Source of the DNA: Parcubacteria group bacterium GW2011_GWA2_40_23
GTDB taxonomy: Bacteria; Patescibacteriota; Patescibacteriia; UBA11705; JABHMO01
NCBI GenBank assembly: GCA_000996245.1
Contig: LBYP01000004.1
Location: forward strand, 10,860-74,859
DNA length: 64,000 bases
Direction of reading: 5' to 3'
Shown: positions 14,655 to 61,965 of the stretch, piece after piece
Position numbering within the stretch: the first letter of the stretch is position 1
How the letters are laid out: each line of letters opens with the position of its first letter
Position numbers and translations under genes: made by a program
The notes under the pieces: model-generated
What the model saw: only the letters and a program-made list of their open reading frames with translations
What the model was told of the DNA's origin: nothing
Databases searched by the model: none

Positions 14655-14691
14655 AATTCGTAACATCAAATTAGAAAGTTCTATTCGTAAC
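14655..14691 (+). promoter_or_regulatory. direct-repeat motif AATTCGTAAC-N17-TATTCGTAAC (site A of 3)
   Basis: aattcgtaac at 14655-14664 and tattcgtaac at 14682-14691, 27 bp start-to-start. Ends 5 nt upstream of the -35 box at 14697. The same architecture occurs at 22380-22415 and 29634-29669. Confidence 0.5.
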
Positions 14692-14696
14692 TCTGT

Positions 14697-14724
14697 TTGA
14701 CAAAACATAGCAAATCATTATAAT
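14697..14724 (+). promoter_or_regulatory. consensus sigma70 promoter TTGACA-16-TATAAT
   Basis: TTGACA at 14697-14702 and TATAAT at 14719-14724; it drives the GC-rich ORF downstream. Confidence 0.6.
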
Positions 14725-14781
14725 AAATTTTGCTTCTGAGTGAAGCATGGTTCTGGCTCCAAACCTTTGTGGAGGGTTCCA

Positions 14782-15264
14782 ATGACTCAAAAAATGACCT
14801 GCGATCAAATCGCGAACGCGATTCGTGATGGCTTGCCCGAGGGCTATGCCAAAGCGGCGCGTTTCCAAGTCCGCAAGGTTCATTCGGGGTTCTTGGTGAT
14901 CGTACCGACGCATCAGGTCGGTGGTAAGCGCGTGCTCAAAACGCACTTCGATAACAGCGATTCCCAGACCCTCGTCGCTCATATCATCGCGCACTTCAAG
15001 TCGTCCGTTCCCGAAGATACCGTTGCCTCCCTGCCCAGAGAGTTCCTTTGTGCCAAGGTGAGCACAGCGATTCGTCAGGCCTTGAAGGGCCTCGATGGAA
15101 TCCGTTTCAACGTGCGTCCGGTTCGTGATGGCCTGTGCGTGATCATCCCGTTCCACCGGACCAAGGGTGTCGAGATTCCCAGAGCGCACATCGGTCCGAA
15201 CTTGGACGAGTCCTACCTCGTGACTCGCGCTGTCGAGCACTTCCAGCAGCACCTCGCCGCCTAG
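14782..15264 (+). CDS. GC-rich hypothetical protein with an internal tandem duplication
   Basis: About 160 aa (ORF track starts at 14740; ATG 14782 gives MTQKMTCDQ…). Two similar ~70-aa halves (CDQIANAIRDGLPEGYAKAARFQVRKVHSGFLVIVPTH and CAKVSTAIRQALKGLDGIRFNVRPVRDGLCVIIPFH). GC-rich codons unlike neighbouring genes. The opposite-strand ORF 14671..15348 is judged spurious. Confidence 0.45.
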   Translation: MTQKMTCDQIANAIRDGLPEGYAKAARFQVRKVHSGFLVIVPTHQVGGKRVLKTHFDNSDSQTLVAHIIAHFKSSVPEDTVASLPREFLCAKVSTAIRQALKGLDGIRFNVRPVRDGLCVIIPFHRTKGVEIPRAHIGPNLDESYLVTRAVEHFQQHLAA

Positions 15265-15326
15265 CAGCTTCCGTTCGCCCGGCCAATCAGATTGGTCGGG
15301 CGTAATTTTTTTGCTATAATTAGCAC

Positions 15327-16142
15327 ATGATAAATTTTCTACATACATTTCAACCTCAACCGATTATTTTGAAACTCGGTCCTTTTGCAATCCACTGGTA
15401 TGGGTTCCTTATGATAGTCGGTGGTTTACTTGGTTTTAGTTTGATTCTTTGGTTAATTAAAAAATATAAGTTGGAGAAAAAGTTTTTTGAAGACCTTTTG
15501 TTTTGGTGGGTTGTAGGTGCGATAATTGGCGCCAGAATATATTATGTGATTTATGCTTGGGAAATGTATAAAGATAATTGGCTCGATGTTTTTAAAATTT
15601 GGCAGGGCGGATTGGCGGTCCACGGGATTATGCTTGGCGGATTAATCACAACATTCATCTATTGTCGTTTAAAGAAAAAAGAATTTTTACTCACAGCCGA
15701 TTTAGTTGTTACTGGTTTAGTCACTGCACAGATTGTCGGTCGCATTGGTAATTATTTTAATCAAGAAATTTTTGGTTTGCCAACTAATCTGTCGTGGGGG
15801 ATTCCAATTGACCTTTCTTTCCGTCCGGAACAATTTATGAACTCAAGTTTTTTCCATCCAACTTTTATTTACGAGTCGCTCGGCAACATCTTAATTCTTT
15901 GCCTTCTTCTTTTTCTTCACCTTCGTCGATTTAAGAAAAAAGAATTTCAGCCAGGACAAATATTTTTCTCTTATTTAATCTTGTATTCAATTCTACGATT
16001 CAGTCTAGAGCTTTTAAGAGTCGATTACAGTCCAATCGTTTTTGGTGTGCGTTGGGCGCAGTTGCTGTCAGGTATTATTATCTTAACTTCTATTATATTG
16101 ATTTCCATCCGATTTGCGAGGCACCGCCCTTTGTCATCCTGA
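15327..16142 (+). CDS. lgt: prolipoprotein diacylglyceryl transferase
   Basis: 271 aa polytopic membrane protein. N-terminal Lgt signature (LKLGPFAIHWYGFLMIVGGLLGF) and conserved GRIGNYFNQE. Confidence 0.85.
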   Translation: MINFLHTFQPQPIILKLGPFAIHWYGFLMIVGGLLGFSLILWLIKKYKLEKKFFEDLLFWWVVGAIIGARIYYVIYAWEMYKDNWLDVFKIWQGGLAVHGIMLGGLITTFIYCRLKKKEFLLTADLVVTGLVTAQIVGRIGNYFNQEIFGLPTNLSWGIPIDLSFRPEQFMNSSFFHPTFIYESLGNILILCLLLFLHLRRFKKKEFQPGQIFFSYLILYSILRFSLELLRVDYSPIVFGVRWAQLLSGIIILTSIILISIRFARHRPLSS

Positions 16143-16376
16143 GGCACTCGAAGGAGACAAAGCAATTGTTTGATTGATTGTTAATGTTTTCTCTCAACCC
16201 AATGACTTACTTGACAAAAAGCATTTTTTTTGATATACTATTTTGTTAAACTAAGGGGAAAGATCATTGATTGTTAATTTTGGCTTAATTTAGTAATTAT
16301 TGACTTTTTCCCTTGGTTGGGAAAGGGGCTCCTGCTTGTACCGGGGGCGTGCTGGATCTTTTTTTAGGAGGAAGCG

Positions 16377-17150
16377 ATGAGTAATCGCGACGAGGACACT
16401 GTCGAGGTCGTGGAACAAGAGAAAATGACCGCGTTCGAGAGGGTGGTCTGGCTCTGGGCCAAGATCATCGGGTACATCCTGACCGGCAAGCGCAAGGCCG
16501 AAGAAGTGGCTGAGTGGCTGCAGATCGTGGTGTCGGAACCTCAGTTCTCCCTGCGTCTCAAGGCCCCACGCGACTCCACCATGGACACCGAAGAGCCTCG
16601 CGAAGGCTGGGCCAAGATCTGGGAGCGATTCTACCTCGAGGTCTTTGGGCTGACGGTAGACCTCTCGGGCGTGGCTGTGTCGTCGTACAAACCCGGTCTT
16701 GGCTGGGTGGTGTATGTGCTGAAAGAGCTTTCTCTTAACCAGCTCTTCGCCAAGTCCCGTGACCTGTTCCCGAGTCGCTCGGATTACGGCGACGACCTGG
16801 ATCGCAAGATTCCGACCGAAGATCGCGACCCGCGTCAACTGGGCAACTACGTGCGTCGGTTCCGGAATCGCGTAGAGGCGGATGAAGAACTCAAAGAAAA
16901 GTCCGCCAACGTTCTGCGCGATGAAGGTATCGCAGGCAACACTCTCCGTGAAGCCTTGATCCTAGAGCTCTTCTACTTCTGGCGCACAGGTGGCGGGCAT
17001 CTGAACTTGCGTTACTGGAATCTCTGTGCGGGCTCGCGCGGTTACCTTGGCTACGTTCCGCGCGTCTTATGGAGCATTGGTTGCTTCCGCGTCAGCGACT
17101 ACGATCCGAGCGGTTCCGGCGAGGATGTGCGCGCGCGCTCCGCAGTTTAA
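16377..17150 (+). CDS. DGR target (variable) protein; GC-rich, C-terminal CLec-like variable region
   Basis: 257 aa. AGGAGG sits 7 nt upstream of the ATG. C-terminal …RYWNLCAGSRGYLGYVPRVLWSIGCFRVSDYDPSGSGEDVRARSAV corresponds codon-for-codon to the Asn-codon-rich TR. No obvious signal peptide. Confidence 0.7.
   Translation: MSNRDEDTVEVVEQEKMTAFERVVWLWAKIIGYILTGKRKAEEVAEWLQIVVSEPQFSLRLKAPRDSTMDTEEPREGWAKIWERFYLEVFGLTVDLSGVAVSSYKPGLGWVVYVLKELSLNQLFAKSRDLFPSRSDYGDDLDRKIPTEDRDPRQLGNYVRRFRNRVEADEELKEKSANVLRDEGIAGNTLREALILELFYFWRTGGGHLNLRYWNLCAGSRGYLGYVPRVLWSIGCFRVSDYDPSGSGEDVRARSAV
17025..17147 (+). repeat. DGR variable region (VR)
   Basis: 3' end of the target gene. Differs from the TR almost only where the TR has A (e.g. 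AGC/GAC/GGT/GGC versus AAC/AAT). The 3'-terminal block gtgcgcgcgcgctccgcagtt is a putative IMH. Confidence 0.75.
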
Positions 17151-17157
17151 CCCTTTT

Positions 17158-17192
17158 CCCTTGTCCCTTTAACCCTTGCGTTAGGGACAGGG
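17158..17192 (+). promoter_or_regulatory. GC-rich hairpin immediately downstream of the VR (candidate DGR homing-enhancing stem-loop)
   Basis: cccttgtccct … agggacaggg is an inverted repeat 8-40 nt after the target-gene stop. A second hairpin, ccagcgttcgctgg, lies at about 17234-17249. Confidence 0.45.
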
Positions 17193-17304
17193 TAAACAAC
17201 CAACATCTGGCACTTCGTACATACGGGGTGCCAGTGCCAGCGTTCGCTGGACAACACAGGGCGTCTTGAAAAAGATCCGCGGTGATTATGGATGGAAATG
17301 ACCA

Positions 17305-17427
17305 ATATGCGGGCTCGCGCGATAACAATGGCAACGTTCCGAACGTCAAATGGAACAATGGTAACTTCCACGTCAACAACTACAATCCGAACAATTCCAA
17401 CGAAAATGTGCGCGCTCGCTCCGAAGT
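17305..17427 (+). repeat. DGR template region (TR)
   Basis: tatgcgggctcgcgcgataacaatggcaacgttccgaacgtcaaatggaacaatggtaacttccacgtcaacaactacaatccgaacaattccaacgaaaatgtgcgcgctcgctccgaagtt. Adenine-rich with many AAC/AAT codons. Lies in a non-coding GC-rich spacer. Confidence 0.75.
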
Positions 17428-17444
17428 TTCAAGTCAAAAGGGGT

Positions 17445-17828
17445 TTATTGATTAAGCTCCTTTTGTTGTAAATATTCAATCCAACCAGAAGTCATTTTTG
17501 AGATTTCTTGTAATTTCTCTTGAAAAACGCCATAGTTTTTTTCTTTGAGTGTTGATAGTTCTAATTCAAGTCTAATGAATTGTTTAAGAGTTTCAATTTC
17601 AATCTTTAACTCTTTAACTACAGGGAGCTTTTCGAGTTTTTGCATTAACGCTGCTTTAATTGCCAGGCGTAGACAAGCTAGAATTACGGATTCTGTTTTT
17701 GATCTTATTCCGTATTTATCGACTTTTGGCAGACCCTTGGTGTTTTGATAGAGCATTTTAAATAAGTCGGAAATTTTATGAACAATCGAAGCGTGAATGA
17801 CATCGGAGGCAATGAATTTGTTGGTCAT
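17445..17828 (-). CDS. avd: Avd-like accessory variability determinant (four-helix-bundle protein)
   Basis: 127 aa. LYQNTKGLPKVDKYGIRSKTESVILACLRLAIKAAL fits the Avd / 23S-rRNA-IVS four-helix-bundle pattern (fPK..KYGL.SQ…). Located between TR and RT but on the opposite strand; its 5' end overlaps the RT ORF by 51 nt. Confidence 0.55.
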   Translation of the reverse strand: MTNKFIASDVIHASIVHKISDLFKMLYQNTKGLPKVDKYGIRSKTESVILACLRLAIKAALMQKLEKLPVVKELKIEIETLKQFIRLELELSTLKEKNYGVFQEKLQEISKMTSGWIEYLQQKELNQ

Positions 17829-18860
17829 AGTGTTTTTGATAAAATTATTTCTATTGAAAATTTATATGGCGCTTGGCGAGAATTTAAACGAGGCAAGACC
17901 AGCAAAAAAGATGTTCTTTGTTTTGAATTTAACTTGGAGGATAATTTGTTCAATTTAGCTGAAGAATTGAAATTAGGCAATTATTTAGTTGAAAAGTATG
18001 ATTTTTTCTATGTGCGTGATCCTAAATTACGGCCGATTCACAAAGCTTCAGTGCGAGATAGAGTCGTTTTTCAAGCTGTCTTTCGGGTACTTTACCCTGT
18101 TTTTGATAAGCAGTTTATTCACGACTCCTGTTCATGTCGTTATAAGAAGGGAATACATTTTGCCGTCGCTCGATTGCGTCGATTTTGTGCCAAAGTAAGT
18201 AATAATTACCATCAGCAAGCATTTGCTTTAAAATGCGATGTCAAAAAGTTTTTCTATTCCATTGATCATGTTATTTTGAAAAAACTCATTAAAAGAAACA
18301 TCGAGGACACGCGTCTGTTGCACCTGATAGATATTATCGTTGATAGTTTTTCTGTAGCTCCAGAAAAGGGTTTGCCGCTGGGAAATGTTACTAGCCAGTT
18401 ATTCGCCAACATCTATTTGAACGAGTTGGATATATTTATCAAACATGAATTACATGAAAAATTTTATCTTCGTTATTGCGATGATTTTATTATTTTGAGC
18501 GAAAGTCAAAGTCATTTATTTGATTTGATACCAATTATAAGTGAGTTTCTCTCATCAGAGTTAAAATTAAAGCTGCATCCGGGTAAAGTTCAACTTAAAA
18601 AAATGACTCAAGGGATTGATTTTTTAGGATATGTAACATTGCCATATTATGGTGTTCTTCGAACGAAAACAAAACAAAGGATGTTTAGGAAGGTTATTGC
18701 AGCCTCGGAAAAGCTGGATGCTGATTTGATTGATAAGATTGGTTTTAACCAAGTGCTGCAATCATATTTGGGAATACTGCAACATTGCCAGAGCTTTTGG
18801 TTACAGCAGGAGCTATTGTTTCTTTGCGGAGAATGCCTTGCTGAAACACAAAAATCGTGA
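17778..18860 (+). CDS. DGR-type reverse transcriptase
   Basis: 360 aa. RT domains are present. LPLGNVTSQLFANIYLNELD carries the DGR-specific (I/L)GxxxSQ motif. The YxDD box reads RYCDDFIILS. No in-frame alternative start lies before the conserved RT region. Confidence 0.85.
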   Translation: MNNRSVNDIGGNEFVGHSVFDKIISIENLYGAWREFKRGKTSKKDVLCFEFNLEDNLFNLAEELKLGNYLVEKYDFFYVRDPKLRPIHKASVRDRVVFQAVFRVLYPVFDKQFIHDSCSCRYKKGIHFAVARLRRFCAKVSNNYHQQAFALKCDVKKFFYSIDHVILKKLIKRNIEDTRLLHLIDIIVDSFSVAPEKGLPLGNVTSQLFANIYLNELDIFIKHELHEKFYLRYCDDFIILSESQSHLFDLIPIISEFLSSELKLKLHPGKVQLKKMTQGIDFLGYVTLPYYGVLRTKTKQRMFRKVIAASEKLDADLIDKIGFNQVLQSYLGILQHCQSFWLQQELLFLCGECLAETQKS

Positions 18861-19010
18861 TATCATAGCACTTGTAACAATTATTTAACAAAACACATAC
18901 TTTTCTTAGCTTATTTTAGCTAAAAGCATTAGACCTGCTGATAAACTCAGCCCTGATGTCTTGAAAAGTAGAGGATCCTGCCTCGGCGGGATAAAGAAAG
19001 GAAATTTACT

Positions 19011-19700
19011 ATGGCAAACGTACCAAGTTTACAAGACTTGATGAAGGCTGGCGTGCATTTTGGTCATCAAAAATCAAAATGGTACCCAAAAATGAAACCT
19101 TATATCTTCATCGAGAAGAACGGGATCCACATTATTAATTTAGAAGAAACTCAAAAGGCTTTAGAAAAAGCTTTGAATTTCATTACTGAGACTGTTGCCG
19201 GTGGCGGAACAGTTCTTTTTGTCGGCACTAAAAAGCAAGCACGTGACATTGTTAAAGACGCTGCACTTTCTTGCAACATGCCGTATGTGACTAATCGTTG
19301 GCTCGGTGGTACTTTAACTAATGCTCCAACCGTTTTAGGCTTAGTTAAAAAGTTCCGAAAATTAAAGGAAGAAAAAGCTTCTGGTAAATTAGAAAAATAT
19401 ACTAAGAAAGAACAATTAGAAATAGCTCGTGAAATTGAACGCTTAGAAACCATTGTTGGTGGTATTGAAAAATTAGAACGCATTCCAGATATACTTTTCA
19501 TGGTTGATATTAAAACCGACAAAACAGCTGTGAAAGAAGCAACACGTCGTCATGTGCCAGTTGTGGCTTTGTGCGATACAAACTCAAATCCAGAATTGGT
19601 TAAATATCCAATTCCATCTAATGACGATGCTGTTAAAGCATTGCAATTAATGGCTACTTTAGTTGCAGAAACAATTAAAGAAGTTAAGGAGAAGGTTTAA
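19011..19700 (+). CDS. rpsB: 30S ribosomal protein S2
   Basis: 229 aa. MANVPSLQDLMKAGVHFGHQKSKWYPKMKPYIF is the canonical S2 start. Confidence 0.92.
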   Translation: MANVPSLQDLMKAGVHFGHQKSKWYPKMKPYIFIEKNGIHIINLEETQKALEKALNFITETVAGGGTVLFVGTKKQARDIVKDAALSCNMPYVTNRWLGGTLTNAPTVLGLVKKFRKLKEEKASGKLEKYTKKEQLEIAREIERLETIVGGIEKLERIPDILFMVDIKTDKTAVKEATRRHVPVVALCDTNSNPELVKYPIPSNDDAVKALQLMATLVAETIKEVKEKV

Positions 19701-56682: not shown

Positions 56683-58824
56683 ATGCAAAGAAGATTCGGA
56701 GTTTTAGTAGTTTGTCTTATGTTAATAATGTCATGTATGAATGCACAAGAAACCATAGCGGCCGTAGTGGATAATAATATTTCCGGCAGTAACGTTAAAC
56801 AATATTATTTCTTTGATTGCGATAAGACGGATTGTCAGGTTTTGTTTAAAGAAATCAGTGAGGACGCGACTGTTGTTCCAGTCGAGGAACCAGCAGAGCT
56901 TCCGGTTATTGGAAGCTCGGACTCAGGAGTTGTCGATGCTGAAACTGTGGATGTCCCAGAAATAGTTATAGAAGTTGTCGACGACACAAACCAAGTTGAA
57001 GACTCTTCCGTGACCGAAGTAACTGATCAAGTCGAAACGTCTGATATTGTCGCACCATTAACAACATATTCTTTCCAATCTGTACGTATAAACGAAGTTG
57101 TCTCTGCCGCTGAAACAGGAGAAAAAGAATGGGTTGAATTGTATAATCCAACAACAGAAACGATTGATCTTCAAAATTGGATAATCGAAGAAGGTTCTGG
57201 CACAAAAACGATTCTGACTGGTCAAATTGAAGCAAAAGGTTATCTTGTGTTCGAAACTAAGAACCTAAACAACAGCGGCGATTTGGTTCTTCTCAAAGAC
57301 GCTACGGGCAAGGTAATTGATCAAGTCGTTTACGGCGATTGGGACGATGGGGATAAGTCTGATAACTGGCCAGCTAGTGACAAAGGCGAAGCCTTATCAT
57401 TATATGAAGGGGAATACGTGGTTAACCCTCAAACAACGCAAGGAGAAATTAATATTTATGACAGATTAGAAACAGTTGTTGAAACTCAAACTGAGACAAC
57501 AGTGCAAACAGAAGTTGAGGTTAGTCCCCAACCGGTCGAAGTGGTTGTGCCAGAAGTAGTGGAGACCGCCGGCGCCGCGACGACTGAACCTTCAGCATCA
57601 ACTATCGCCTACCAGTACTCGGACGTTGTCAGGATCAATGAGCTCCTTCCGGCGCCGGCCACCGGTAGCGAAGAATGGATAGAACTCTACAATTCCGGTT
57701 CAACGGATGTCGACCTTCGCGGTTGGTCCATTGATGACGCCGAAGGTGGCAGTACTCCGTATATTATTTCAGAATCTTTGATTATCAGGGCTCAAGGTTA
57801 TTTAGTTCTGCCTCAATTAAAAACGAAGGTTCAACTTAATAATTCGTCAGATGAAGTTCGGCTAATAGATCCAGACCAAAAAGTTATTGATTCAGTTTCT
57901 TACGCAGCAACGCATTCGAATGTTAGTTGGTCAAAGATTGATACTAATTGGGTCGAAACAGAGCTTTTAACGCCGGAATTGGTGAATGCTTTAGCGGAGG
58001 TTGATCCATTAGTGATAAGCTCGTCCATCGAAGAAACAGAAACCTTGACTGCAGATCCGGCATTTCAAGGTCTTGGAATTAGTGAGGCCGCGGCCTTGGA
58101 CTTAAGAACTCAGGTAATGGTCGAGGCCGCCGTGACAGTTCTCCCGGGAACTTTCAGTAAAAATTTAATTTATGTTCAGGATGAAACTGGTGGTATACAA
58201 GTTTATTTTGATGCAGCCACTTGGCCACAACTTTCACTCGGACAAGAAGTTGTAATTGCTGGTACAATTTCGCAAAGTTTGGGTGAAAAAAGAATTTTGA
58301 TTAAGAATGCGACTGATGTATTTGTCAAAGAAACGACTCGTGCAGTTCTGCCATTCAAAATAAATACAGAGATGTTGAGTCCCACACTAGTCGGATCTTT
58401 GGTTGAGCTGGAAGCAACTTTGTTTAAAAAAGATGGGAGTACTTGGTTTATGACTGATTCTGTTGGCGGAGTGAAAGTGTATTTGAAAAAAGGTTCTCAA
58501 ATCCCAAGTACCTTATTCAATGTTAATGACAAACTCAAAATCACGGGTGTTCTCGTTCAAAATAATGGAGAATTCATGATTCAACCACGTAATGATCAGG
58601 ATATTGTTAATCTTTCATTGACTGAAGATGGTGGAGCGGGCGCAAGCATTGAAACACAAGAAACAATCCCTCCTGGTTCAACACAAAAGAATGTACTCGT
58701 AGGTTTGGGTGTAGGTGCTGGTGTTCTGGGCGCAATTAATTTGTTCTTAGCTCTAAAAAAATATTTACCCAAGCGTAAAATTCGGGGTTATTGGTATCGT
58801 TTGAAAACTAGCCTTCAGGGTTAA
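56683..58824 (+). CDS. surface protein with two lamin-tail domains (LTD) and a C-terminal membrane anchor
   Basis: 713 aa. Signal peptide. Two LTD units (VRINEVVSAAETGEKEWVELYNPTTETIDLQNWIIEEGSG…; VRINELLPAPATGSEEWIELYNSGSTDVDLRGWSIDDAEGG…). OB-fold-like C-terminal region. TM helix near the C-terminus (VLVGLGVGAGVLGAINLFLAL). AAGGAG RBS present. Confidence 0.6.
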   Translation: MQRRFGVLVVCLMLIMSCMNAQETIAAVVDNNISGSNVKQYYFFDCDKTDCQVLFKEISEDATVVPVEEPAELPVIGSSDSGVVDAETVDVPEIVIEVVDDTNQVEDSSVTEVTDQVETSDIVAPLTTYSFQSVRINEVVSAAETGEKEWVELYNPTTETIDLQNWIIEEGSGTKTILTGQIEAKGYLVFETKNLNNSGDLVLLKDATGKVIDQVVYGDWDDGDKSDNWPASDKGEALSLYEGEYVVNPQTTQGEINIYDRLETVVETQTETTVQTEVEVSPQPVEVVVPEVVETAGAATTEPSASTIAYQYSDVVRINELLPAPATGSEEWIELYNSGSTDVDLRGWSIDDAEGGSTPYIISESLIIRAQGYLVLPQLKTKVQLNNSSDEVRLIDPDQKVIDSVSYAATHSNVSWSKIDTNWVETELLTPELVNALAEVDPLVISSSIEETETLTADPAFQGLGISEAAALDLRTQVMVEAAVTVLPGTFSKNLIYVQDETGGIQVYFDAATWPQLSLGQEVVIAGTISQSLGEKRILIKNATDVFVKETTRAVLPFKINTEMLSPTLVGSLVELEATLFKKDGSTWFMTDSVGGVKVYLKKGSQIPSTLFNVNDKLKITGVLVQNNGEFMIQPRNDQDIVNLSLTEDGGAGASIETQETIPPGSTQKNVLVGLGVGAGVLGAINLFLALKKYLPKRKIRGYWYRLKTSLQG

Positions 58825-58944: not shown

Positions 58945-61878
58945 TTGTTGGAAGTACCAATTTGTGTTATAATTAACTCAAATAAGATATATTCGATGCG
59001 ATATCGATTATCGAAAATTTTACATTATTTAGGAAGTAAACTTCAATCTTGCTTTGAGTTTATTAAATTTGTTTTTGTTCCAAGGCAGAAATATTTTGTC
59101 ATTGGAACTTTTGTTATTATCGGATTTAGTGTCTTTATTTGTGGTCGAGTGGCTTATGGCGGTTGGCTTGGCCCTAGCTGGGAGGATATAATGCACCTGC
59201 TAAATTCTGTTTTGTTCATGTTTGCCAGTATGCTTGGTTGGGTTGCCATGAAGATTTTTGCCTTAGTGATCATGGTGTGTCAATACAATACTTTCGTAAC
59301 TTCACTAGCAGTAGTTAAAGCCTGGGTCTTGATCCGAGATGTTTGTAATATGGGTTTTGTGGTAATCTTACTGATAATCGCTTTTGCTCAAATTTTAAAT
59401 GTTCAAAAATATAGTATTAAAACATTATTACCGAAGGTTCTAATAACTGCGGTCTTAATAAATTTTAGTAAACTACTCTGTGGTTTAATGATTGATGTTA
59501 GTCAGGTTGTGATGATGACCTTTGTAAATGGATTTCAGGCTACGGCTGGTGCGAATCTAGTTAATGGGTTGGGGCTGGCTAAGTTAATGAAACTAAGCGC
59601 AGAAAACTCTGAAAACGGAGCAGCAAAAGGAAGTGGACCAACTGGTGCCCAAATATTTTTAGCTTTATGTTTGGGGATTTTAATACTTATTGCCATGATT
59701 TGTGTCATGTTTTTTATTGCTTTAATATTGGTAATGAGAATAGTTACTCTGTGGTTATTAGTTATTTTAGCTCCGGCAGCTTGGGCGTTTAGCATGTTTC
59801 CTGGCATGGGTGAAGGTAAGTATAACGATTGGTGGAAAAATTTTGGTTCAACAGTAGCTGTGGGGCCATTCATGGCGTTTTTTTTGTGGATTTCCCTCTT
59901 GGTAATGTCTAATCCAGACCAGATGATAGCGAATATGAATGAAATGAATGCTGGTATCGAAGCCAAGAGTGGCGATAAACCAGCGGTTGGTGCTTTAGAC
60001 AATCTTGCTCAGGCAGCCATGGGTTTGGTTTTGCTTATGGCCAGTTTAATTGCTGCCCAAGAAGGCGGTGGCGCTATTGGTAAGCTAGCTGCCAAGGGGC
60101 AATCTGTTGCCACTGCGGCGGTGCAAAAGACAGCTATGAAGTTTTCTGGTGCGCAAGCTGTGGCTGATAGAGGTAAGGCTGCGTATGCTGGATATAAAGA
60201 ACAAAAAGACGCCAAGCAAGCAGCGAAGCTGGCACCCTGGAAAGAGAAAGGTGCTAAAGTTGCTTCAGCGCAAAACAAAATACAGGCGAACTTAATACAT
60301 CCTGTTTCGGCTGTAAAAGCGGCTGGAGCTGGTATTAAGAAAGGTGCGGAAACTTATTCTAAAACAAGAACAGAGGGGGGCGGTGTTTTAAAAAGTTTGT
60401 CTGCTGCTAAAAAAGCTGCTGCTAAAGAAGGCAAGGCACGTTTTATGAAGGATCAAGGTGGCAAGCTCAATATGCGTATGGCCAATGCGGTTGATTCTAA
60501 TGTTCACAAAGAGGCCATGGAAAAAGGAAAAAAATCACTAGGAGATCGTGGTATTAAATCAGATGCAGATTTAGATGATATAATTTCCGGTAAGATAAAG
60601 GCTAGTGAGGCAGAGAAAAAGACCGCCATGCTTATGAAGGCTGAGCGCGGTAATTTAACGGCTGACCAGGCAAAGCAAGGCAAGGAAATGATGGGTGATG
60701 ATGCGGCCAGTGCTGATGTCTTTGAGGCGAGCATGAAGAAAAAACAAGTTCATTTGGCTTATAATTTTGATGATGCTGGCGAAAGAGCACGGTTTGATAA
60801 AGATGTTAAATCTGGGGATATTGATTTAACTAAACAAGGTGTGGATGCATATAAAGATCAGAAGTTTATGAGTGCTGCCGTTGGATCACTGGGGGCAAAA
60901 GCTTTTGGTGATCAAATGAAGAAGGTTGGTGATAGAAGTGATGAACACAAAGAAGCTGTTAAGAATACAGTGAAGGATCCGGCTTTTGCACCAACAGCGT
61001 TAACTGCATTAAATAATCAGAGAACTGCTGCTGCTACGGAGGTCACAAACAAAACAACGGAGCTTGCAGCTTTGACCGCCGGATCACCAGCGCACACTAA
61101 AAAACAAGAGGAACTAAACAAGGTGATTGCAGTGAAGACAAAAGCAGATGCGGATCACGCAAACACAAAGAAAGCTTTACCTGAAGCAATTGCTAAAGTG
61201 TCTGGTGATCTTGATATGGCGTTCATTAACCGTGATGATAATGGTGTGCCCCACCCAGCAGGTCATCCAGAGGCGGGAATTAACCAGGCAGGGTTAGCTG
61301 GCTATGTTAAGGGATTGGATGCAAAAGGATTAGCTAAGTTAAATCTTTCGGGTTCATCGGATGCTGTAAAACATGGTGTAGCTTCTAATGTTAATGCTAA
61401 TGCATTAAATAATTTGGCCAAGTCTAATGTTGAAGGTTCTAATGAGCAGGTTCAAGAGCTTACTAAAGCCATGGCTGAATTTGTTAATAGTCCTTCACTT
61501 GATCCTGCGACATCGAGTCCTGCGGAAATAGCTGATAATGAAACAAAGAAAGCAGCTTCGCTTAAAGAATTACTAAAAGCAGTAAGTAAGGATGAGACAT
61601 CCGCTGCTTTTGGGGACAAGGAAACAGCAATTTTAACTGCTGTTAACGCTGCTCAAACGGCATTAAATAGTAGACGTGCCGCAGCTGGACAAGCACCGGT
61701 TCAATCAACTCAGCAAGGACAGGCTGCGGCTGACGCCGCTTCTGCTGTTGCGAGGACTGCCGCTGACGCGACTGCCGCTGCTAATGCTGCTACGACTGCT
61801 GCGGCTAGAGACGCGGCGTTGGCGCAAGCTATTGCTGATGCATTGAGACGTGGCGGTCCACTACCACCTACTCCTTAG
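58945..61878 (+). CDS. polytopic membrane protein with a long Ala/Lys-rich tail (TrbL/VirB6-like candidate)
   Basis: 977 aa. At least 7-8 TM helices in the first ~350 aa, followed by a ~600-aa Ala/Lys/Gly-rich low-complexity region ending in QAPVQSTQQGQAAADAASA…PLPPTP. Topology resembles T4SS TrbL/VirB6 proteins; family assignment is weak. Confidence 0.35.
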   Translation: MLEVPICVIINSNKIYSMRYRLSKILHYLGSKLQSCFEFIKFVFVPRQKYFVIGTFVIIGFSVFICGRVAYGGWLGPSWEDIMHLLNSVLFMFASMLGWVAMKIFALVIMVCQYNTFVTSLAVVKAWVLIRDVCNMGFVVILLIIAFAQILNVQKYSIKTLLPKVLITAVLINFSKLLCGLMIDVSQVVMMTFVNGFQATAGANLVNGLGLAKLMKLSAENSENGAAKGSGPTGAQIFLALCLGILILIAMICVMFFIALILVMRIVTLWLLVILAPAAWAFSMFPGMGEGKYNDWWKNFGSTVAVGPFMAFFLWISLLVMSNPDQMIANMNEMNAGIEAKSGDKPAVGALDNLAQAAMGLVLLMASLIAAQEGGGAIGKLAAKGQSVATAAVQKTAMKFSGAQAVADRGKAAYAGYKEQKDAKQAAKLAPWKEKGAKVASAQNKIQANLIHPVSAVKAAGAGIKKGAETYSKTRTEGGGVLKSLSAAKKAAAKEGKARFMKDQGGKLNMRMANAVDSNVHKEAMEKGKKSLGDRGIKSDADLDDIISGKIKASEAEKKTAMLMKAERGNLTADQAKQGKEMMGDDAASADVFEASMKKKQVHLAYNFDDAGERARFDKDVKSGDIDLTKQGVDAYKDQKFMSAAVGSLGAKAFGDQMKKVGDRSDEHKEAVKNTVKDPAFAPTALTALNNQRTAAATEVTNKTTELAALTAGSPAHTKKQEELNKVIAVKTKADADHANTKKALPEAIAKVSGDLDMAFINRDDNGVPHPAGHPEAGINQAGLAGYVKGLDAKGLAKLNLSGSSDAVKHGVASNVNANALNNLAKSNVEGSNEQVQELTKAMAEFVNSPSLDPATSSPAEIADNETKKAASLKELLKAVSKDETSAAFGDKETAILTAVNAAQTALNSRRAAAGQAPVQSTQQGQAAADAASAVARTAADATAAANAATTAAARDAALAQAIADALRRGGPLPPTP

Positions 61879-61965
61879 TTATGAGCGAGGAGTGATAGTT
61901 GCTACGTCAGTAACTGCGAGTATCTAGAAGTTCGCAAGCTGTTAAACAATAATAACAACAAAGAA

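Follow-up and report, generated by a model that had tools for sequence, protein, structure and literature searches.

Results

An intact B3-type DGR in a CPR chromosome

The window analyzed here is a stretch of 64,000 nt from contig LBYP01000004.1 of Parcubacteria group bacterium GW2011_GWA2_40_23, and its chromosomal cassette has prfA, rpmE, lgt, rpsB, tsf and pheS/T as neighbors. These genes, together with public copies of the sequence, point to a CPR genome from Rifle groundwater (GCA_000993485.1). The features of the cassette, in order of position, are the following.

16211-16239 (+): promoter-like site ahead of the target gene (TTGACA-17-TATACT, TG-extended); 11/12 consensus match, the best in the region
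16377-17150 (+): DGR target gene of a CPR-specific family, 257 aa, 58.8% GC, GC3 0.72
17027-17148 (+): VR, at the 3' end of the target ORF and ending at the target stop codon; 79% identical to TR
17159-17192 (+): GC-rich hairpin just 3' of VR, where DGRs have their cruciform-type element (z -4.4 for the fold of L004:6772-7045; L004 is another assembly of this locus)
17206-17234 (+): intrinsic-terminator-like hairpin with a 13-bp stem, whose T-run falls within 111 nt absent from the window
17234/17235: discontinuity (AATTTTTTTATAAAAACTATGTTATAATACAT...CTGAACTA) where 111 AT-rich nt are absent; four other assemblies, L001-L004, carry them (L004:6859-6969)
17308-17429 (+): TR; 31% A, 49.2% GC
17445-17828 (-): avd, 127 aa, with an N-terminus kept in relatives; matches Pfam bAvd over residues 15-119 and NCBIfam DivGenRetAVD over residues 14-117
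17778-17828 (both strands): overlap module formed by N-terminal extensions of both proteins; same geometry in more than 70 related junctions
17778-18860 (+): DGR reverse transcriptase (RT), 360 aa, with LGNVTSQ and YCDD motifs; RVT_1 match and bRT alignment
17805-17810 (+): GGAGGC, an apparent degenerate remnant where relatives have a G8-14 homopolymer; identical in the sister species

As read from its sequence, the locus carries the features that mark a DGR: an RT of the DGR clade, an adenine-specific TR/VR pair with VR at the 3' end of an ORF, Avd, and a putative GC-rich IMH/IMH* end with an inverted repeat after VR. The RT matches RVT_1 (E 9e-22), and its closest solved homologue is Bordetella bRT (8ub7_A, E 5.4e-37, residues 18-307). 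Avd scores 50.6 bits against Pfam bAvd (E 3e-13), above the cutoff of 40, and 60.6 bits against NCBIfam DivGenRetAVD, below the cutoff of 80. TR and VR are 122 nt long. Of their 26 mismatches, 25 fall on adenines of TR, which VR replaces by G (15), T (7) or C (3); the repeats end in GCGCGC(G/T)CGCTCCG(C/A)AG, where one non-A position differs between VR and TR. The window holds no second TR/VR pair beyond this one. By analogy with other members of the family, RT-Avd would copy TR RNA into cDNA, misincorporating opposite adenines, and this cDNA would replace VR. Five assemblies of the strain show no variation in VR, which as a comparison of consensus sequences is a weak test of ongoing diversification. 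The target protein has no Pfam or NCBIfam match; its AF2 model (pLDDT 85) gives no significant PDB fold match, and similarity to C-type lectins is weak.

The first-pass annotation of this DNA correctly placed avd in inverted orientation, diverging from the RT, and called the arrangement atypical beside co-directional cassettes. For this lineage it is not atypical, because the B3 architecture, TR-(avd)-RT, accounts for 90% of a CPR DGR set (Wu et al. 2018, NAR 46:11; PMC5758913), and the core here is TR-(avd)-RT with avd on the reverse strand. Of 80 genome loci that encode homologues of the target, 31 have both avd and RT nearby; all 31 keep the order target(+)-TR-avd(-)-RT(+), and an adenine-specific TR lies directly before the avd stop codon in 25 of 25 testable loci. 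The layout is thus the usual CPR type and already known. The B3 systems of Wu et al., together with DGR clade 2 (Roux et al. 2021), are the closest known: they arrange target/VR, TR, inverted avd and RT in the same way, live in CPR hosts, and have a small target without a recognized domain.

The DGR of Bordetella phage BPP-1 (mtd-avd-TR-brt) is another point of comparison. It has a homologous RT (E 5e-37) and Avd, adenine-specific TR/VR differences, a GC-rich 3' repeat end and a hairpin after VR. In BPP-1, however, all parts are co-directional, avd lies upstream of TR and a spacer separates TR from brt, whereas here avd is inverted between TR and RT, and both proteins have extra N-terminal tails of 13-17 residues. 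With avd in this place, an RNA element 3' of TR could only be antisense avd.

A 111-nt gap in the VR-TR spacer

The window appears to join two contigs without the sequence that belongs between them. The 111-nt segment absent at 17234/17235 is present in the four other assemblies (ENA, JGI) and in the sister species, and NCBI contig LBWI01000016.1 terminates exactly at 17234. With the segment restored, the VR-TR spacer is 291 nt long and 44% GC, within a family range of 256-368 nt and close to the norm of about 300 nt. The apparently high GC of the spacer is therefore partly an artefact of the missing AT-rich sequence: of the earlier observation that both the target gene and the spacer are GC-rich, the part on the target stands (58.8%) and the part on the spacer needs correcting.

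The coincidence of a real discontinuity with a contig end might suggest that the step in GC near 17440, or the whole cassette, is an assembly chimera. The gap lies 200 nt from the step, order and orientation on its two sides are right, and the VR/TR pair spans it. The four other assemblies are contiguous and identical through 17235-19500, and thus across the step, and layout and step recur in 25 related loci. This refutes a chimera at the step near 17440, and we regard one in the cassette as a whole as barely credible.

The restored segment bears on how the cassette may be transcribed. It begins with the T-run of the terminator and, some 175 nt before TR, has the extended -10 box TGTTATAAT, such that the flaw takes the likely TR promoter out of the window. 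The full element order is then promoter-like site, target with C-terminal VR, GC hairpin, terminator, AT-rich promoter-like segment (known from the other assemblies and missing from the window), leader of about 170 nt, TR, inverted avd and RT. Among 26 related cassettes, about half have a hairpin and T-run 56-99 nt past VR, and 17 have a TAWAAT box 172-231 nt upstream of TR. Since a promoter-like box precedes TR and no terminator lies between TR and RT, co-transcription of TR and RT through antisense avd is possible, and the earlier argument that places any RT promoter within avd does not follow of necessity. A scan for sigma-70 consensus sites around the avd/RT overlap was uninformative, with 10 sites against 5.4 +/- 2.0 in shuffled sequences and none well placed for avd or RT.

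The promoter-like site upstream of the target, a consensus match at L004 5835-5863 (window coordinates are those of L004 plus 10376), is also kept in the sister species. The 130-nt 5' leader of the target (16246-16376) is near-identical there, conserved more than coding sequence, and folds as two hairpins before an AGGAGG site (z -2.6). A G8 run abuts the -35 box in the sister species (L086 3335-3342), and the window is without it; two further loci (L013, L052) have G8/C8 runs near the starts of their target genes.

Reciprocal start and histidine codons in the avd/RT overlap

The first 17 codons of avd overlap the RT ORF, as had been noticed in the first pass. From ATG to ATG the overlap spans 51 nt (17778-17828), 17 codons of each gene. 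The accompanying statement that the RT has no in-frame alternative start needs correction: there is an in-frame GTG at 17793, and since it still lies within the overlap, 36 nt would remain shared. The overlap consists of N-terminal extensions of the two proteins, because Avd profiles start at residue 14-15 of Avd and the alignment with bRT starts at RT residue 18 (bRT residue 7).

The two ends of the overlap mirror each other. The RT ATG (17778-17780) is the reverse complement of the codon for Avd His17, part of an "xVHK" motif, and the Avd ATG (17828-17826) is the reverse complement of the codon for RT His17, which is conserved and sits just before the RT core; the conserved RT His before the core aligns with bRT His5. 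The conserved cores of RT and Avd are a median of 49 nt apart in related loci. Of 31 loci, 28 have an ATG that pairs exactly with the Avd His codon on the other strand, and in every locus examined the Avd ATG and the RT have one and the same frame offset. The RT-side position is a start codon in 46 of 46 junctions (ATG 37, TTG 5, GTG 3, CTG 1), even where the Avd residue differs. With this geometry avd and RT are both in frame only if the span from ATG to CAT is divisible by 3, as the 51 nt of the window are.

Public annotation reads the junction differently. Gene calls in four public assemblies start avd at Met25 (17756), which shortens Avd to 103 aa and leaves a 21-nt divergent intergenic region before the RT start at 17778, so that there would be no true overlap. 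In keeping with such a start, neither the RT ATG nor the upstream Avd ATG is preceded by an evident Shine-Dalgarno sequence. It would, however, truncate the Avd domain, to which both the Pfam and the NCBIfam profile align from residue 14-15, and remove "SIVHKISDLFK", the best-conserved part of helix 1; most relatives have no Met at this position. The recurrence of reciprocal ATG/His pairing and matching frame offsets in more than 70 junctions likewise argues against the shorter protein, and we consider it unlikely. Taken across these junctions, sequence comparison shows the head-to-head overlap to be a module conserved across the clade, with predicted start codons at both ends.

A clade-wide split in GC between target/TR and avd/RT

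Against a background of 37.3 +/- 3.6% GC, the target gene (58.8%), VR (64.8%) and TR (49.2%) are GC-rich, and avd (33.1%) and RT (35.0%) are AT-rich, such that the step first judged by eye is borne out by the GC profile. GC3 is 0.72 in the target and 0.31 in the neighboring genes. Relative to background, an anchored profile across related cassettes gives +11 for the target body, +20 to +23 for VR, about 0 for the spacer, +10 for TR, -8 for avd and -6 for RT.

The split extends far beyond the window. Of 69 related genomes, 67 have a target that is richer in GC than the genome itself (p 8e-18; mean excess 12 points). In 34 cassettes the target lies 18 points above the RT on average, with the RT 6 points below background. 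In 27 cassettes picked independently by their junction pattern, 15 of which have other target types, the target lies above avd by a mean of 23 points and by at least 14 in each. The sister species has the split too; five phage DGRs, with differences of 1-6 points, lack it.

Two simple causes were considered and set aside. Amino-acid composition accounts for about 4 of the 21 points in the window, the remaining 17 or so (~80%) being synonymous codon choice, and the target coding strand is not specifically depleted of A (A 19.9%, T 21.3%). A search of the GC islands for RNA genes with Rfam (gathering thresholds) and ARAGORN gave one tRNA only, at 32 kb.

A second GC-rich island lies 1 kb upstream of the target at 14782-15264 (+), where a 160-aa ORFan with an internal duplication has 57.6% GC and GC3 0.71. 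Public annotation places a 225-aa ORF on the opposite strand here (14671-15348); the coding-like GC3 pattern belongs to the + ORF, which is kept as a GC-rich 161-aa gene in the sister species. No homologue of it occurs in the 80 related loci, and it has only two database relatives, none near other DGRs. Milder GC-rich patches (47-49%) at 57300-57800, 59800-60200 and 61400-61900, inside two large ORFs (713 and 977 aa), are neither RNA genes by Rfam nor VR copies of this TR.

From the composition of this locus it had been suggested that the target/TR module and the RT/avd module either have different evolutionary histories or are under different compositional constraint. The first of these would be explained by recent acquisition of the target/TR module from a GC-rich donor and its joining to a native, AT-rich avd/RT. 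The contrast in GC3 with the neighbors has the classic look of foreign DNA, the second ORFan is GC-rich as well, and the dependence of target GC on genome GC is weak (r 0.39, slope 0.41). Yet the same split recurs in 67 of 69 genomes, at target identities down to about 32%, and target and RT co-diverge, their distances being correlated (Mantel r 0.37, p 0.0015). All homologues found (88 + 103) come from CPR, and no host genome among them reaches the GC of the target; the VR-TR spacer is of background composition; and both islands are still GC-rich in the sister species, whose genes nearby have diverged at 43% of 4-fold sites. Because the split is clade-wide, target and RT co-vary and the sister species keeps its islands, a recent local transfer is ruled out, and acquisition from a GC-rich donor as a general account is very unlikely. 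Different compositional constraint is supported: the clade has kept the GC split over a long time, and most of it is synonymous. Our best guess at its cause is selection at the nucleotide level that favors a GC-rich duplex of TR and VR where the genome is AT-rich, combined with a directional force on the whole target ORF, either synonymous selection or GC-biased conversion.

Uneven divergence from the sister species

Comparison with the sister species reveals that divergence at 4-fold sites is 43% in neighboring genes, 30% in the target and 18% in avd (17445-17828 compared with L086; 43% in lgt and ytxH, p 0.001). The spacer-TR-avd region as a whole is 90-97% identical. The low divergence of avd is consistent with nucleotide-level constraint on its antisense strand, as a functional antisense RNA 3' of TR might impose, or with recent exchange of the cassette.

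The RT ORF of the sister species (L086 5012-5632, L088) stops after 160 aa and is followed by complete divergence from the window. In another group of relatives (L036 and L091-L095) the RT is split into 2-3 ORFs that differ between assemblies. Both look like decaying RTs beside intact targets.

A poly-G tract at the avd/RT junction of relatives

In most relatives the overlap contains a feature that the window does not have. A run of G7-14 lies in the overlap in 27 of 31 related genome loci, translated as Gly in the RT and as Pro in Avd, and about 90% of relatives carry a G8-14 homopolymer there. Such runs are concentrated at this position: of the 34 G/C runs of at least 8 nt in 976 kb of related loci, 30 sit at the avd/RT junction, and a metagenome scan for G8...CATAATATTTTTGA returned 50 loci, about 46 of which are avd/RT junctions. 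The window has no G/C run of 7 nt or more anywhere; both it and the sister species have GGAGGC at the tract position, with both genes in frame. One relative (L034) has a GA-repeat at this position instead, and three contigs (L012, L016, L105) stop at the tract. Look-ups of P0067, P0039 and P0069 brought up targets that were orphans or had no tract, and were uninformative on polymorphism of the tract.

Tract length varies between sequences with identical flanks: 11/10 in L010/L097, 12/11/12/11 in L103-L106, 10/11 in L109/L151 and 9/10 in L128/L145. Four of 12 same-flank groups thus differ by 1 nt, and eight other pairs agree. These lengths are those of assembled sequences, and differences among G-runs of 10-12 nt could partly be sequencing or assembly noise. 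The reading frames of 46 junctions are distributed as 7 in frame, 24 at +1 and 15 at +2, with the in-frame state rarer than one third (p 0.005). When the conserved start is out of frame, the ORF ends after about 14-25 codons; when it is in frame, it continues for about 335 aa. Tracts of G9 have equal length in all seven same-flank assembly pairs and are out of frame in 17 of 22 cases. Since these reproducible tracts are also mostly out of frame, sequencing error alone cannot explain the pattern. The idea that the G tract acts as a Shine-Dalgarno sequence for a start just 3' of it does not hold in general, since in several loci no canonical start in frame follows the tract.

Discussion

The locus described here is probably an intact chromosomal CPR (Patescibacteria) DGR of B3 layout, in which two properties, the avd/RT overlap module and the GC split, extend across the clade, and whose relatives carry a putative tract switch. 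The accessible literature on B3/clade-2 DGRs makes no mention of a 5' coding overlap with reciprocal start and His codons, of a poly-G tract or of a GC split between target and enzyme genes. More broadly, the accessible literature draws no link between DGRs and homopolymers, phase variation or target GC; the principal study of DGRs in CPR (Paul et al. 2017, Nat Microbiol 2:17045) was outside the scope of this reading and may describe some of these features.

The geometry of the overlap suggests what the tract in relatives may do. Its length would set the reading frame of avd and RT together, and we infer that it acts as a slippage-driven switch or throttle on DGR activity, either through heritable phase variation or through transcriptional slippage. 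This idea rests on the relatives, because the window itself has no tract; in its lineage the tract was apparently replaced by GGAGGC, which would leave both genes permanently in frame.

If the tract is read as a heritable switch, the parallel is with the poly-G/C contingency loci of Campylobacter, Neisseria and Helicobacter. As in those loci, the G8-14 run of the relatives lies near the 5' end of coding sequence in an AT-rich genome, is length-variable between samples and is out of frame in most of its states. Unlike them, a single tract would here gate two divergent, overlapping genes, the gated function would be a mutator, and the window's own copy has no tract.

Alternatively, the G tract could be a site of transcriptional slippage or programmed frameshifting, yielding a small fraction of in-frame RT and Avd from a tract of any length, with no heritable switch in the DNA. 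The distribution of junction frames, in which the in-frame state is rarer than chance and +1 is commonest (7/24/15), would fit an absence of DNA-level selection for frame, and the eight same-flank pairs of equal length point the same way. Against this account, full-length in-frame versions do exist at seven junctions, and assemblies of one strain can disagree in tract length. Slippage is also better documented on A/T runs than on G/C runs. We judge slippage or frameshifting without a DNA switch to be rather improbable, though the least so of the alternatives weighed here.

We tentatively propose that in clade-2 CPR DGRs the poly-G/C tract may be a contingency switch of avd and RT, such that hypermutation would be turned on and off stochastically and be off in most cells, and that the lineage of the window may have lost the tract and become locked on. 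Separately, and as part of the same tentative proposal, the mostly synonymous GC enrichment of target and TR may reflect nucleotide-level selection tied to retrohoming in AT-rich genomes.

The cassette in the window is itself an ordinary B3 CPR DGR, and the clade-wide synonymous GC split between target/TR and avd/RT provides a clean compositional signal. The proposed switch, if real, bears on how DGR mutagenesis is regulated and how its cost is limited: one slippery tract that controls RT and Avd together would build a stochastic regulator into a mutator. Such a tract would also account for the many CPR DGR RTs annotated as frameshifted or N-terminally truncated, and surveys that drop "broken" RTs may undercount functional CPR DGRs.
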